Shown here in pieces: positions 19,980-25,788 of a stretch of DNA of 64,000 nt; the stretch's first letter is position 1, and each line of letters begins with the position of its first letter. The notes under the pieces are model-generated. The model searched no databases and was not told where the DNA came from. It saw only the letters and a program-made list of their open reading frames with translations. Source of the DNA: Spirochaetia bacterium (lineage in GTDB: Bacteria > Spirochaetota > Spirochaetia > CADAEX01); the NCBI GenBank assembly GCA_963662795.1, contig OY759746.1:3488001-3552000 (forward strand), in the 5' to 3' direction. A program made the translations under genes and the position numbers.

Positions 19980-22613
19980 CTATTCCTTAATAAAGTACTG
20001 GGCAACTGCCAATGTCGCAATAGGAACTGAATAGGTAGAGCATGAAACATAATTAAGCCCGGCCCCTATACAGAATTCAATATTAACAGGAACAGCTCCC
20101 TGTTCCCCGCATAAACCCATAACTATATCAGGTCTTGTCATTTTTCCTCTTCTTACAGCTGTCTGTACAAGTTCCTGAACGTTTGGATCAAGTATTTCAA
20201 ACGGATTGGCCGGTATAATATCAAACTGGGTATAATCCGGCATAAAATTATTGAAATCATCGCGGGATAGGCCAAGAGTTGTTTGAGTGAGGTCATTTGT
20301 CCCGAAAGAGAAAAATTCTGCATACTTGGCGATATCTCCGGCGCTCAGCGCTGCTGCAGGAAGTTCTATCATTGTTCCTATTTTGTATTCAACAGGTTTA
20401 GCTTTTAATGACTCTCTGACCTGAAGTTCAACTTCCGTTAGACCTTTAATTGCTGTCCCTTCAATTTTCTTTCCGTAAACTATGGTTTTTAATTCCTCAG
20501 TATTCATAATAATTGGAATCATTATTTCAGGGTTAACCTTAACTCCCTCTTTTTGCAGTGAATACACTGATTCAAAAAGGGCTGTAACCTGCATTTCGTA
20601 TATTTCAGGATAAGAAATTGCAATTCTGCATCCCCGATGACCAAGCATTGGATTAAACTCGCTTAAACCGTCACATAACAGGGCTATCTCTTTTTGAGTT
20701 ATTTTTTGATAACCTTTCTGGGTTTTAAGATACTTAATAAAATCATCCATTTCTTTAGCATTATGCGGAAGAAATTCATGCAAAGGTGCGTCAAGAAGCC
20801 TTATTGTTACTTCTTTGCCCTCCATGATTTTTAATATTTTATAAAAATCATCTTTCTGCATATTTTTAAGCCGCAAAAGAGATTTTGCCCTTTTTTCCTT
20901 ATTGTCAGAAAGAATCATTTCACGGAAAACATTAATTCTTTTTTCATTGAAAAACATGTGTTCAGTTCTGCACAATCCGACACCTTCTGCACCGAATTTT
21001 TTTGCAAGCGAACAATCGCGCGGATTGTCTGCGTTTACCCTGACATGGAATTCCTTGTTATATTTTTTAGCAATCTGGATGAGTTTTTCAATTCCTGAGG
21101 ATGCAAAATCAGGTTCAATAAGTGTTGATTTACCGATATAAATTTCAGGACTTCCATAATGAGGAATATTCAGGGTAACATAATCACCTTCATTAAGCGT
21201 TACATCGTCAATGGTAATTTTATTTCCTTTGAATTTCATTTCAGGTTTAACAAGCGAAACTTTTCCATATTGCCGCGCAACAACAGACGCATGCGCAGCG
21301 TATCCGCCTTCTGAAGATAAAACACCGGATGCAACTTCGATGGCTTTAACATCTTCAGCAAAAGTAGCTTTCATGCAAAGTATGAAATTTGTATCAAGTC
21401 CCTGCTGCATTGCGACCTTGTTGGCATCAAGAAGAGCTTCTGTGGTAAAAAAGATCCTTCCTATTGCCGCCCCGGGAGCTCCGGTAATACCTCCGACAAG
21501 CTTTTTAAAACCTTTAGTTGAAGTGATATCAATGATTGGATGAAGTATTTCATTAAGCTGTTCAGGTTTTATTGCATTTAAAAAATATTTATCATCAATA
21601 AGTTTTCTATCGTGCAGATCAAGCAATGTAATTATCTCAGATTTAACCGATTTGTTAAGTACGTCCCTTTGATCAACAAGCCATAGTTTGCTGTTTTCAA
21701 TGGTAAAGCGGATATGTCTTATATCCTTAAAATGATCTTCCACAGTTCTGGCAATTTTATCCAGTTTAGAAAAATTCGATTTGTCAATCTTTGTAATATC
21801 TTTGCCTTTTACACCTGTAAAGTCAAAAGTATTCTGGAAATATTCTCCAAACAATACTTTATCTCCATTGATAATATTTCTTGTATAAAAGGAACCGCTG
21901 CATGATGTATTGCCTGTATTACCGTATACCATTGCAGAAACGCCAATTGCTGTATCGTTATCATTCATCTCATCAATTTTAAGCAGATAACTTACTCTTG
22001 ATATTGCATAGTCAAGCTGTTCATATGCATCTTCGAAAAAACTTTCCGGTAAAATTCCTTTTACCATCTCATAAAGTTTCTCAAGATCTTTTTCAGAAAC
22101 ACTTTTGTTGATTTTTCCGCTTATAAAATCAATTATTGTGTTGATTTTTATTGATTCCTTCTCTTTCTCTTCAATTTTTAATATTTTATCTTCAATGATG
22201 AGCAGTCCTTTTACCATAAAAAAAAGTTCGTTGTTGGAAAATTCACTGCCTACCATTTTGCTGAAACCATGAAGCGTCTTTTTTGTCAATCCGAAATTGT
22301 GCAGCGCCGGATAACTGCTTGTTATAATCAGGTTTGGGCTGATTACAATCTTTAAAGTCAAGGGTTTAGTTTCAGCGTCATATTTCTTCCCCATTTTATT
22401 TTCTACTTTGGAAATAAATGGTTTTATATATTTTATTATCTGACCGGTTTCAATAGAAGAAGCTACATCAGAGTCAATTGCGAATCCCGGAATTACAGGT
22501 AAATTCAGTTCTGCGAAATTATTTGCTTCTCTTATTCTTAACCCAATTTTTTCAAGTATTGATGAATTCTTTATAAATTCTTCTTTACAAAAAAAATGAA
22601 TATTATTTTTCAT
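19980..22613 (-). CDS. PPDK-like PEP-utilising protein with degenerate ATP-grasp domain
   Basis: Intact phospho-His motif GGYAAHASVVAR and C-terminal GLCRTEHMFF, IRLLD, NPMLGHRGCR, GTMIE, FSFGTNDLTQ, GLCGEQG; N-terminal nucleotide-binding motifs altered. Confidence 0.9.
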   Translation of the reverse strand: MKNNIHFFCKEEFIKNSSILEKIGLRIREANNFAELNLPVIPGFAIDSDVASSIETGQIIKYIKPFISKVENKMGKKYDAETKPLTLKIVISPNLIITSSYPALHNFGLTKKTLHGFSKMVGSEFSNNELFFMVKGLLIIEDKILKIEEKEKESIKINTIIDFISGKINKSVSEKDLEKLYEMVKGILPESFFEDAYEQLDYAISRVSYLLKIDEMNDNDTAIGVSAMVYGNTGNTSCSGSFYTRNIINGDKVLFGEYFQNTFDFTGVKGKDITKIDKSNFSKLDKIARTVEDHFKDIRHIRFTIENSKLWLVDQRDVLNKSVKSEIITLLDLHDRKLIDDKYFLNAIKPEQLNEILHPIIDITSTKGFKKLVGGITGAPGAAIGRIFFTTEALLDANKVAMQQGLDTNFILCMKATFAEDVKAIEVASGVLSSEGGYAAHASVVARQYGKVSLVKPEMKFKGNKITIDDVTLNEGDYVTLNIPHYGSPEIYIGKSTLIEPDFASSGIEKLIQIAKKYNKEFHVRVNADNPRDCSLAKKFGAEGVGLCRTEHMFFNEKRINVFREMILSDNKEKRAKSLLRLKNMQKDDFYKILKIMEGKEVTIRLLDAPLHEFLPHNAKEMDDFIKYLKTQKGYQKITQKEIALLCDGLSEFNPMLGHRGCRIAISYPEIYEMQVTALFESVYSLQKEGVKVNPEIMIPIIMNTEELKTIVYGKKIEGTAIKGLTEVELQVRESLKAKPVEYKIGTMIELPAAALSAGDIAKYAEFFSFGTNDLTQTTLGLSRDDFNNFMPDYTQFDIIPANPFEILDPNVQELVQTAVRRGKMTRPDIVMGLCGEQGAVPVNIEFCIGAGLNYVSCSTYSVPIATLAVAQYFIKE

Positions 22614-22633: not shown

Positions 22634-23683
22634 TTAGAATAGTCTCAAAACAGTGTTAACAGGGTATTTCAAAAAATCTTCAAATCTATGACTTGCGCCC
22701 TGTCTAAAATATCTTTGAAGTTTGGCTACATCCTGAATATCTCTTCCTGATACTGCAAACATGATTGCACTGCCATGTTTAACCTTACCCCATTTGAAAA
22801 GTGTATTTATATCGTGGATTCTTTCACCTTCATAGAAAATTATGACATCTGCACCTGGATATTTTGCTTTATAACTTCCTATGATCCTTTTCCACGCTTC
22901 AACATTTCCGTTGTGAAAAAGTTCATTGGTAACAGGGACAGCATACAGAGGCGTCATTCTTACAGGTCCGCTTCCGGTTGATGCAGGGACAGGTGCTGCT
23001 GCTTTCGATGCCTGCTGTGGTGCAGAGGCCGATTCTTTTACTTCAGCTCCGGAAGATTTTTGTGCTGTTTTATTTACCGATTTTTTAGTTGTACTCTTTT
23101 TTACCTGTGCTGTATTTTTTGGTGCCGGTTTCGTTTTTAAAACTTTAACTTTATATTTCCCGTCTAAAACCTGAGCAGGAACCTTTGGTTTTTTATTTTC
23201 AAATATTTTTATTATTTCTTCGATTACTTTTAAAGAATATTTATTCCCGTTTTTACCTGAATAATCGCCTGCATAAATTGTAAGTATTTCATATTTTTTA
23301 AATTCCGAAGTCAGCTGAAGACTTTCAAGTCTTTTCGGATTAATAACAAGATATCCAATGTTGGGATTATGATAACCAAAAACAATATCTATACCCGACC
23401 ATTTGGAAACTTCTTCCTGAATCTTGCTGAAATCAGTTATGGTTTCTTTTAAATTAATTGATTTAAAGGAATAATTATATTTATCAACAAGAAGGGAGTT
23501 AATTACAGGTAAAAGCTGATGCTGTTCGAGTTCCCCTTCCTGCAGATTTTTATTCAAAATATCTGCAATATTGTTGTAATCTTCAAATTCATTTATTGCT
23601 GAAAGTACAGAATTAAAATGGTTTAACGATTTATTAAAACCATCACGCGTATAAAAGCGCTCAAATTCTTTTATATCAGTCAT
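22634..23683 (-). CDS. Two-domain protein: unknown N-domain, K/A/P/S/T-rich linker, C-terminal HPr-like domain
   Basis: 349-aa ORF between cfpA and the PPDK-like gene; residues 243-330 align by eye with HPr. Confidence 0.75.
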   Translation of the reverse strand: MTDIKEFERFYTRDGFNKSLNHFNSVLSAINEFEDYNNIADILNKNLQEGELEQHQLLPVINSLLVDKYNYSFKSINLKETITDFSKIQEEVSKWSGIDIVFGYHNPNIGYLVINPKRLESLQLTSEFKKYEILTIYAGDYSGKNGNKYSLKVIEEIIKIFENKKPKVPAQVLDGKYKVKVLKTKPAPKNTAQVKKSTTKKSVNKTAQKSSGAEVKESASAPQQASKAAAPVPASTGSGPVRMTPLYAVPVTNELFHNGNVEAWKRIIGSYKAKYPGADVIIFYEGERIHDINTLFKWGKVKHGSAIMFAVSGRDIQDVAKLQRYFRQGASHRFEDFLKYPVNTVLRLF

Positions 23684-23709: not shown

Positions 23710-23739
23710 CCCGGAAAAGTTCTATCGAACTTTTCCGGG
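23710..23739 (-). other. Intercistronic stem-loop after cfpA, without a U-tract
   Basis: Perfect 13-bp stem CCCGGAAAAGTTC/GAACTTTTCCGGG with a 4-nt loop. Confidence 0.8.
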
Positions 23740-23751
23740 ATTAAATTGAAA

Positions 23752-25788
23752 TTAAATTGTAGTTAATTTATTGCCTGAACGTTTTCTCGTAGTAGTTTTT
23801 TTCTTTGAATTATCAACAACGCCGGTTGATTTTCTTTTTTCCTTTGCCGGTTTTGCTTTTGTAACTGCGAGTGCAGGTGCCGGGGATTCATTGTCAATGG
23901 TACTGTTCAGAAGATCAAGATAACTTTGTCCTTTATCTTCTTCTTCGCCTTCAGCAAGTTCAGTAGAGAAAGACTGACTGATATCTCCCCTGACAGTTGA
24001 CCTTCTTCGTGAGAATGAAGCAAACGCAGCATCCTGGAATCCTTTGGAAACACCATAAAGGAATTCATTGAGGACATTTGCCATACCGTCAAGTGTAGCT
24101 TTCTTTCTTTTTACTGATGTAATATCAAGATCAAAAAGAAGACCGGGCTGAATATGATAAGGATTTATAATATAATCATAATTGTTGAATTGTGCTTCAA
24201 GCTTTTCAAGCCTTTCTTCCATAACACGGCGCTGAATCGGATACTTATAGCCGTACATATCATGGAGTCTATTCTTCATAAGAACAAATCTCTTTTTAAT
24301 TTTATCCTTTTCAAAAATATATGTTCTGTTCAGCTCTTCTACACTTGTTTCAGCAGCCCTGATAAAAGAAACTTCATCCCAGACTTTCTCAATATTTTCA
24401 TAAAGAGGATCGCCTGTTTTTGCTTTGATGGTTTTTGCTATCTTGTTTTTATATGCTTTTGCAAGATCTTCAAAATCTGTTACACCCTTGAATCTCTTGG
24501 CATCCTGATAAACCATTTCAAGGATATCCCAAAGATGCTCTACTTCAACTTCAAAAGACTTGATCTGTACATCATAAGCTTTCTGTTCTTCAATAAGCTG
24601 TGCATTATCGTAATATCTCATTCGGATCTGATATCTTTCATCAGGAAGATGTTTTGCATCAGTATCTTCATATTCCCTGATCAACAGCTCTCTTCCGTTT
24701 TTCAGGTTTTCAATATACTGATAACCCATTTTTGAAGTATCAAGAATTGAGGTTATTGAATTGATTGCAGTGTTGTAGCCTCTGTTTCTGATATTTTCTA
24801 TATCAATTATCTTTTTAAGGTTTTCACGTACATTCAGCTGATCAAAAGACTCCGGCGGAATCTCTGCCCTTAATCCGTCAATAGCATCCATAAGATTTTT
24901 AGCAACAAGATTAAATCTCTTTGATTTGGGGTTATTCTTGTCATCATCAGTAAGGGTTTCCACCTTTTTCATCTTCTCAAAGATTATTTCACTATCGGTA
25001 AACTCTTCTTTACCTTCATCAATGAGCTGGTCTTTCAGTTTTTCAATCTCTGCATCAAGAATATCTGTGATGTTTTTCGAGATCAATTCCTTGATAAGAT
25101 ATTCAACTGTAGCCTGATAATGAAAAATCGGGCTGATCAGTTCTGAATCAAGGATATTAACAGACATTTTTACATCGCAAACAGTTTTTGGTTTGTAAAT
25201 ATTGTCTTTAAATGCACATTTCACAACAGAGTATGCATTTTCACCTCTGATAAACGCACCTACATCTGTTTTCTGCCGTAAAAGTGAGTTTGTGAGGTTT
25301 TCCAGATCGTTAACACCCCTCTGGATATGTCCCTGAAGGTGTCCGTACATGTTGACGATAGATTTTTCAATCTCACCGGTATTGAACTTATCCATACCGC
25401 CAACTTCATCAAGAAGTGTTGCAATTTCCTTAGGTGTATACCTGTTAAGAACCTGCATTTCCTGTTTGTCTATAAAATTCCTGACTCTTTTTACCATTTC
25501 ATCTTCAGTAGTAACAATATATCTATTGAACATATTCTGGTAGTTCTGGTTAAAATAGTTATAGACTTTTTCTTTAAGTCCACCCATTACATCAATTTTT
25601 TCCACAACTTCAAGTGGAAGTTTTGAAGTAACATGGTTTATTACTTTGTCTACTTCTTCTGCAAGAAGTCTGTCAACTTCGGCCTGCTGATCCCTGCTTT
25701 CCTGAGCGAGAGAGTTTCTAGATCCTACAGCACTCGGCTTCTCTGGGTGGAATACCATCGGGCTTTTTGGAAGATCAATACTTGCCAT
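23752..25788 (-). CDS. cfpA: Cytoplasmic filament protein A
   Basis: N-terminus [30 protein letters not shown] closely matches treponemal CfpA as I recall it; 678 aa, coiled-coil rich; AAGGAG RBS. Confidence 0.92.

Follow-up and report, generated by a model that had tools for sequence, protein, structure and literature searches.

A TP_0747-family protein with two predicted HPr-fold domains in a conserved spirochaete module with cfpA and a divergent PPDK paralogue

A conserved three-gene module

The locus considered here belongs to the genome of a Spirochaetia bacterium (GCA_963662795.1, contig OY759746.1), of which a stretch of 64,000 nucleotides (positions 3,488,001 to 3,552,000 of the forward strand) was analysed. 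This whole stretch is referred to as the window, and its own numbering is used throughout. The gene of interest (22634..23683, minus strand, delimited by its open reading frame (ORF) and translation) encodes a 349-residue protein of the TP_0747 family, hereafter denoted X, and is flanked by two genes on the same strand. The gene cfpA (23752..25788, minus), located 68 nt upstream of X, encodes cytoplasmic filament protein A and is identified by NCBIfam NF040882 (1168 bits, cut-off 500). A divergent paralogue of PPDK (pyruvate phosphate dikinase; 877 aa, 19980..22613, minus) follows 20 nt downstream and is recognised by the domains of phosphoenolpyruvate (PEP)-utilising enzymes and by TIGR01828. 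The three genes constitute a conserved module. Treponemes are characterised by their CfpA filaments, to which, as far as we know, no accessory protein has been assigned. The present analysis points to two strictly linked partner genes, each with a structural reading.

Co-occurrence was evaluated in a phylum sample of 61 genomes. HPr (PF00381) is found in all 61 genomes, X in 21 and CfpA in 20. X and CfpA are both present in 20 genomes and both absent from 40; the sole discordant genome has X at the very end of a contig. In 16 of these 20 genomes, and in three of three further ones, cfpA is the direct upstream neighbour of X and has the same orientation. The remaining four comprise one genome in which both genes are 7 kb apart on one contig, two in which X is on another contig, and one in which both genes are at the ends of separate contigs. 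The PPDK paralogue directly follows X in all 24 genomes examined (the window, 19 of 19 fetched loci at the level of ORFs, one genome by coordinates, and the three further genomes). The gap between X and the paralogue amounts to 9-58 nt in 14 of 18 measured loci and to only 9-20 nt in many of them. The paralogue stays beside X also where cfpA has moved away (G010, G011, G039), and the complete trio is retained in a reduced genome of 1.14 Mb (G149). Beyond the trio, flanking genes are not conserved among the related loci compared. The first-pass annotation of the window, made from the sequence alone, missed the strictly linked PPDK-like gene downstream, which is the most important part of its context.

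In a Treponema denticola array, TDE0842-0844 (cfpA, a conserved hypothetical protein and a putative PPDK) are repressed together, as listed in Table 5 of PMC3914990. Three sediment metatranscriptome runs contain contigs of relatives only (90-97% alike), which lie on cfpA and on parts of the paralogue; none spans a gene junction. One genome (G005) harbors three full-length CfpA genes on the contigs C69, C97 and C102, and X and the paralogue follow the C97 copy only.

A search of 5.8 billion proteins returned 3188 homologues of X at E <= 1e-3. A precomputed match to PF27497 (PF27497.1), named TP_0747_N in the protein atlas, is found on X and on 120 of 120 homologues among the matches listed, and the homologues with a named source are from spirochaetes. 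Because PF27497 is shared and the named sources are spirochaetes, X is assigned by sequence to the orthologue family of Treponema pallidum TP_0747, which is catalogued but uncharacterised. X is a member of PF27497 and occupies the same place between cfpA and the 'PPDK' gene in the window, in the related loci and in G149; the family name, in contrast, refers just to the N-terminal part and says nothing about function. No family for X itself is present in the local copies of Pfam and NCBIfam (the PF27497 model is not in the local Pfam copy), and residues 243-349 have no usable match among the named protein-atlas clusters when PF27497 is excluded. A literature search, whose reach does not extend to supplementary tables, found no paper on structure or function of the TP_0747 protein: the query TP0747 returned 0 papers, a query for cfpA with cfpB gave unrelated papers only, and one for CfpA with cryo-tomography gave nothing on accessory proteins. 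The sole literature trace of the X gene is an expression table, with the tags TDE0840-0844 searched. Within the reach of these searches, no publication describes that both domains are predicted to adopt the HPr fold, that X is strictly linked to a remodelled paralogue of PPDK, or that this neighbour is such a paralogue.

Architecture and predicted folds of X

The predicted architecture of X comprises five parts, all encoded on the minus strand. The N-terminal helical region (residues 1-68; 23480..23683) consists of AlphaFold2 (AF2) helices at residues 4-8, 13-33, 39-48 and 54-68. It is followed by HPr-fold domain 1 (residues 71-164; 23192..23473), assigned from the b-a-b-b-a-b-a order of its elements and from VIA-align, and by a linker rich in Lys, Ala, Pro and Ser (residues 165-242; 22958..23191), which is classified as disordered and basic from the AF2 model and its composition. 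HPr-fold domain 2 (residues 243-337; 22673..22957), assigned from AF2, Foldseek and VIA-align, is followed by a conserved C-terminal tail that ends in L-F (residues 338-349; 22637..22672). The tail is defined by two alignments: A1, with 36 rows of close and mid-range homologues, and A5, whose 20 rows are genome-paired homologues that represent at least 12 families. Neither alignment shows any variation at L348 or F349, and F349 remains nearly invariant even if stand-alone homologues are added.

The AF2 model of the whole protein has a mean predicted local distance difference test (pLDDT) of 80, with values below 50 at residues 190-236 and no secondary structure between residues ~174 and 240. 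Of the 78 linker residues, 16 are Lys and 12 are Ala; the linker varies in length and has a mean identity of 23.9%; the disordered basic tether agrees with the low-complexity 'swinging arm' described in the first-pass annotation. The isoelectric point (pI) differs between the parts of X, with 5.3 for the N-terminal half, 10.5 for the linker and 9.6 for the C-terminal domain. Mean pairwise identity across 20 genomes is 40.9% for residues 1-68 and 65.6% for domain 2 versus 34.7% for domain 1, with true HPr at 45.5% (30 genomes). By this measure, constraint is far stronger on domain 2 than on any other part of X.

The position and sequence of domain 2 had been read correctly from the DNA: in the ORF 22634..23683 (minus), the first base of the M243 codon is nt 22957, and the CAC at nt 22913-22915 encodes His257. 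The range given for the domain, 22694-22957, is likewise in the right location; the peptide quoted for it ends at F326, whereas the range reaches residue 330. The domain was modelled with AF2 from residues 243-349 and an alignment of 51 rows. The model has a pLDDT of 94.2 and a predicted TM score of 0.87, and its elements follow the order b-a-b-b-a-b-a (in domain numbering: strand 5-8, helix 16-32, strands 36-42 and 45-47, helix 50-57, strand 64-71, helix 77-87). In a Foldseek search against 350,542 PDB chains, HPr or Crh make up the first 29 rows (ranks 1-33) among the matches listed, with E-values between 5.3e-3 and 8.5e-2, target-normalised TM scores of 0.43-0.67 and a root-mean-square deviation (rmsd) of 3.1-5.4 A. 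VIA-align, which is independent of Foldseek, likewise returns HPr as the top four of 48,161 chains (Z 7.4, 7.2, 7.1 and 6.9; rmsd 2.2-2.8 A over 77-80 residues), where best Z values of 7-8 are typical even for queries without clear relatives; for this reason the match is taken to mean a common fold and not as proof of homology. The next match after HPr is a phosphoglucosamine-mutase domain at Z 5.8, and KH domains as well as the aIF2-alpha C-terminal domain are matched below HPr at Z 4-5.7. Within a confident model, domain 2 is thus predicted to adopt the HPr-type open-faced sandwich, as had been proposed on first reading.

The likeness does not extend to sequence. The proposal that domain 2 follows HPr element by element is not borne out above chance level, because neither Pfam, nor profile searches, nor hhalign returns HPr. 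Using hmmscan with the whole of X or with residues 243-349, PF00381 is absent even at E <= 10; hhalign of domain 2 against 30 spirochaete HPrs gives a probability of 0.16% (global) or 1.6% (local); and a hidden Markov model built from 51 X homologues does not find HPr among the PDB sequences. As judged from these profiles, neither domain of X belongs to the HPr sequence family of the phosphotransferase system (PTS). Among other candidates, a phmmer search of X against PDB sequences gave chance-level matches only (e.g., an RxLR effector at E 0.047), and a weak Pfam match to ubiquitin (E 0.13) was rejected, since the fold search leads to HPr and not to a beta-grasp fold. Compared to HPr (PtsH, PF00381), both domains of X share the predicted b-a-b-b-a-b-a two-layer fold, and domain 2 shares a conserved surface on helix 1 and helix 2. 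Its near-invariant residues are located at the N-terminus of helix 1 (NELFHNGNVEAWK, which includes His257) and in helix 2 and the next loop (LFKWGKVKHG), that is, on the same face by which HPr binds its partners. Unlike HPr, X has no profile match, domain 2 has a helix 1 extended by about 5 residues, and the domain is part of a 349-residue two-domain protein with a conserved tail of 12 residues. Crh and NPr, HPr paralogues in which a phospho-site is lost or altered and both among the structural matches of X, are similar in that they use the fold mainly as a regulatory binding module; they are, however, clear sequence homologues of HPr, which X is not detectably.

Within domain 2, His257 (22913..22915, minus) was assigned from sequence and model to the residue just before helix 1. 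It is residue 15 of the domain, helix 1 starts at residue 16 of the AF2 model, and it thereby takes the topological place of the active His of HPr. The equivalence to His15 suggested by the first-pass annotation is consistent with this placement and with the alignments, in which each of the 36 rows of A1 and each of the 20 rows of A5 has His. With the sandwich fold predicted and His257 conserved at the N-terminal end of helix 1, the core proposal survives the refutation criteria set in that annotation. A wider set of 252 sequences was anchored on the E-A-W motif that follows the His, which succeeded for 222 (the 30 unanchored sequences are mostly fragments). A His at this position is found in 205 of the 222; the 17 exceptions are three two-domain homologues (with S, Q and N, respectively) and 14 short stand-alone proteins. 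The motif H-N-G-N starting at His257 is invariant, in place of the HxRP of HPr, as had been noted before; an equivalent of Arg17 is absent, whereas the genome's own HPr has G-I-H-A-R-P-A. The proposed regulatory site fares differently. Thr294 is not supported as an equivalent of Ser46: its position is occupied by T, A and S in 23, 9 and 4 rows of A1 and in 10, 8 and 2 rows of A5, and it is the third residue of helix 2, which starts at residue 292 with D291 as N-cap, so that a conserved Ser/Thr at the helix-2 N-cap, as in HPr, is lacking. Hence, two of the four sequence equivalences originally drawn between domain 2 and HPr fail, namely HxRP with its Arg17, and Thr294, which is variable and intrahelical.

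Domain 2 is also encountered as stand-alone proteins of 108-163 aa (P0215, P0220, P0225-P0236, P0242, P0243, P0246-P0254; L032 1618-1974). Those with a named source are from metagenome-assembled genomes (MAGs) of SAR324 and 'Deltaproteobacteria', one of which contains two copies. The His is absent from these proteins except for P0215, and E-A-W as well as the C-terminal L-F are kept (D-A-W and F-F in P0215). In the SAR324 locus, the neighbouring genes appear by eye from their translations to be PurH-like and UbiE-like and give no functional lead; a second candidate locus (L033) was not used, being a chance match of 24 residues.

The part of X preceding the linker had been described as an unknown N-domain. 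Residues 71-164 of the whole-protein model instead match HPr: VIA-align against the same 48,161 chains returns HPr as the top four (Z 8.8, 8.5, 8.1 and 7.7), superposed with an rmsd of 1.9-2.3 A over 78-80 of ~85 residues, and NPr at Z 6.1. In the models, domain 1 is the better match to the HPr fold of the two domains. Its helix-1 N-cap is formed by D84/F85, without His. An HPr fold alone does not imply phosphotransfer, because domain 1 and 17 domain-2 homologues lack the His. The sequence of domain 1 gives an hhalign probability of 4.3% against HPr, with I-N-P-K opposite V-N-A-K-S, which is suggestive only. Domain 1 and domain 2 give an hhalign probability of 0.6% when compared to each other, and an internal duplication therefore cannot be shown from sequence. 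A further match of the whole-protein model, of residues 13-165 to the regulator NiaR, which combines a helical DNA-binding domain with an HPr-like domain, has a Z of only 4.3 (rmsd 4.4 A over 116 residues) and was not relied upon.

The divergent PPDK paralogue

The protein encoded downstream of X resembles canonical PPDK (TIGR01828) in length, domain order, catalytic His and the motifs CGE and NDLTQ. It differs in that its TIGR01828 score of 654.4 bits is below the cut-off of 843.45 (the canonical PPDK of the same genome scores 1345.9), most nucleotide-domain invariants are lost, and a loop is deleted. All 21 X-linked paralogues score between 620 and 740 bits, and among the matches listed this class is found in exactly the X-bearing genomes and in none of the 40 others. 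A canonical PPDK is encoded elsewhere in 20 of the 21 X-bearing genomes, the exception being a genome that is 73% complete.

To describe the divergence, 20 paralogues were compared to 11 canonical enzymes (11 of 12 fetched; L061 was left out because the frame taken from it was on the wrong strand and lacked the motifs), counting those columns that are invariant in the canonical enzymes and kept in at least 90% of the paralogues. Retention in the paralogues rises from the nucleotide domain (20 of 117 such invariants) through the His/linker region (15 of 47) to the PEP/pyruvate domain (96 of 130). His441 (21291..21293, minus), which aligns with the catalytic His455 of Clostridium symbiosum PPDK (1dik_A), is invariant in 20 of 20 paralogues; T453-S454 of 1dik_A are replaced by A-A. 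Arg92, Asp321 and Glu323 of the C. symbiosum enzyme, which we take to be ATP/Mg-binding and catalytic residues, correspond to Val, His and Arg in the window paralogue. Across the paralogues, position 92 is always Val, position 321 is His, Gln, Asn or Glu, and position 323 is always Lys or Arg; the position of Gly101 is deleted in 19 of 20, and the loop conserved in canonical PPDK (residues 287-291) in 20 of 20. The remodelled nucleotide domain has invariant residues of its own and is therefore under selection for something. TIGR01417 also matches the paralogue (1e-31). By its alignment to canonical enzymes, the paralogue is classified as a distinct class, with the His and PEP domains preserved and the nucleotide-binding domain remodelled.

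In G149 (L066 2672-8546), a complete single-contig genome, the paralogue class is the sole PPDK-like gene, and a match to pyruvate kinase was not found in this genome. The gene has the coordinates published for TP0746 in PMC10013896, where TP0746 is described as the glycolytic PPDK of T. pallidum. T. pallidum TP0746 appears to belong to the paralogue class with remodelled nucleotide site, which bears on metabolic models of a hard-to-study organism. How G149 converts PEP to pyruvate should be looked at again. In a class sample of 71 genomes, the paralogue class is the only one present in five, with canonical PPDK absent at E <= 1e-150; besides G149, genomes with this gene content are G082, G092, G094, G112 and G119.

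Candidate roles of X and minor features

We lean, if only slightly, towards a reading in which X is a two-headed HPr-fold adaptor or regulator within the cfpA / TP_0747 / PPDK-like module, as suggested by gene linkage and conservation. X would carry two HPr-fold, protein-binding heads on a flexible tether, and the partners that it links or regulates would be the filament of CfpA and the PPDK-like enzyme. The C-terminal head would dock via the face equivalent to that of HPr on a conserved partner, most likely the adjacent enzyme, and the other half of X or the linker may engage CfpA. Binding, and not phosphoryl carriage, is what we infer as the default reading of domain 2. Even with binding only, X would be a handle for finding the bridge or anchor of the filament ribbon.

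Several points weigh against this reading. The roles of both heads are deduced from gene linkage and conservation only, and the interaction is putative; a predicted complex of the paralogue (877 aa, alignment of 20 rows) with residues 243-349 of X has an ipSAE of 0.01 in both runs, which weighs neither way. The fold scores are middling (Z 7-9), with zero rows at E <= 1e-3 for domain 2 in the Foldseek search of the PDB, and a small b-a-b-b-a-b-a sandwich could be convergent. The sole stand-alone locus seen, that of SAR324, has neither CfpA nor a PEP enzyme nearby; domain 2 thus exists outside the module, and its basic function is therefore not tied to it. Finally, an invariant His at the position of the HPr active site beside a PEP-utilising enzyme is equally what would be expected of a phosphocarrier.

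A true phosphocarrier is the foremost alternative, one that we consider unlikely. In this scheme the paralogue would be autophosphorylated by PEP at His441 and, since its nucleotide site is remodelled, the phosphoryl group would be passed on to His257 of X, similar to the pair of Enzyme I (EI) and HPr. Depending on the PEP/pyruvate state, phospho-X would then act as a regulator of the CfpA filament or of some other target; to this extension, taken together with the relay, we grant the same low chance. The scheme is consistent with the HPr fold and its invariant His immediately before helix 1, with the constant position of X beside a PEP-utilising enzyme homologous to Enzyme I (24 of 24 genomes), and with a paralogue that keeps His441 and 96 of 130 PEP-domain invariants, only 20 of 117 in the nucleotide domain, with the positions of Arg92, Asp321 and Glu323 substituted. 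EI and PPDK have their His and PEP domains in common, TIGR01417 also matches the paralogue, and as in the EI/HPr pair a swivelling phospho-His domain would be found beside an HPr-fold module. The pair differs, however, in that the paralogue has a remodelled N-domain of the PPDK-type ATP-grasp and not the HPr-binding domain of EI, and the pairing of the paralogue with X is putative; to our knowledge, PPDK is devoid of the helical HPr-docking subdomain of EI. The scheme is further weakened by the invariant H-N-G-N without Arg17 equivalent (H-A-R-P in the genome's own HPr), by the absence of the His from three two-domain and 14 stand-alone homologues as well as from the sister domain 1, and by the lack of a sequence-level tie to HPr. 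Moreover, the paralogue may have to run at metabolic flux in G149, as it is the sole PPDK-like gene there and no pyruvate kinase was found, which would need a small molecule, not a protein, as acceptor.

If the phosphocarrier scheme held, cfpA, TP_0747 and the paralogue would constitute an unrecognised PTS-like phosphorelay on the cytoskeleton, with the His257 domain tethered to CfpA by the other HPr-fold domain or by the linker; we regard this too as an outside prospect. Such a relay would couple filament behaviour, and thereby cell division, chromosome placement and motility, to the glycolytic state, and the enzyme annotated as the sole PPDK in the syphilis spirochete would be something other than an ordinary one. 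An HPr-fold head that takes phosphate would amount to a PTS-type relay on a PPDK scaffold wired to the cytoskeleton, a new use of an old module.

Less credible still is a nucleic-acid tether, in which the basic linker and the C-terminal domain would bind DNA or RNA, the acidic N-terminal half would bind CfpA, and X would couple chromosome and filament, the PPDK-like neighbour being merely co-transcribed. The charge split (pI 5.3 / 10.5 / 9.6) and the matches of domain 2 to KH and aIF2-alpha at Z 4-5.7 fit such a tether, and cfpA mutants reportedly have chromosome and cell-division defects. The linker, however, is poorly conserved (23.9% identity) and variable in length, the KH-type matches are weaker than those to HPr and within the Z range that VIA-align calls common, and the adjacency to the paralogue in genomes where cfpA is not a neighbour (G010, G011, G039) would be left unexplained. 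The least probable alternative, that X is a regulatory subunit of the PPDK-like enzyme only, whose HPr-fold domain or domains bind the remodelled N-domain and control the swivelling His domain, with a purely transcriptional link to CfpA, accounts for the tighter linkage to the paralogue (24 of 24) than to cfpA (16 of 20 and three of three) and for the very short spacers of 9-20 nt in many loci, but sits poorly with the phyletic pattern shared by X, CfpA and the paralogue in the 61 genomes and with a trio kept together in a 1.14-Mb genome.

Apart from X, the genome encodes PTS components of its own. A six-frame search for PF00381 returned a canonical HPr and a fusion protein only. The ordinary HPr has genes for an HPr kinase and a hibernation factor as neighbours (G000:C1:1341247-1344492, L001), and a DhaM-like EIIA-HPr-EI fusion is located next to a DhaL-like gene (G000:C1:132714-135962, L002). 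With its own HPr, HPr kinase and DhaM-like fusion, PTS-type chemistry therefore coexists with X.

Two minor features concern cfpA and its surroundings. The spacer between cfpA and X contains a perfect stem-loop of 12 bp without a following U tract (23711..23738, minus), found by RNA folding of the spacer (-24.3 kcal/mol, z -5.0). Stems of at least 10 pairs occur in the spacer folds of 13 of 18 related loci, that is, in all those whose spacer has at least 85 nt. The stem-loop may act as a partial terminator, or as a stabiliser that sets a high CfpA:X ratio; a scan for promoters and terminators gave sites no more numerous than in shuffles and did not list the hairpin. An ORF of 193 aa antisense to cfpA (24154-24735, plus strand) has BLAST matches in several related loci, and is most simply explained as a shadow of cfpA conservation rather than as a gene.

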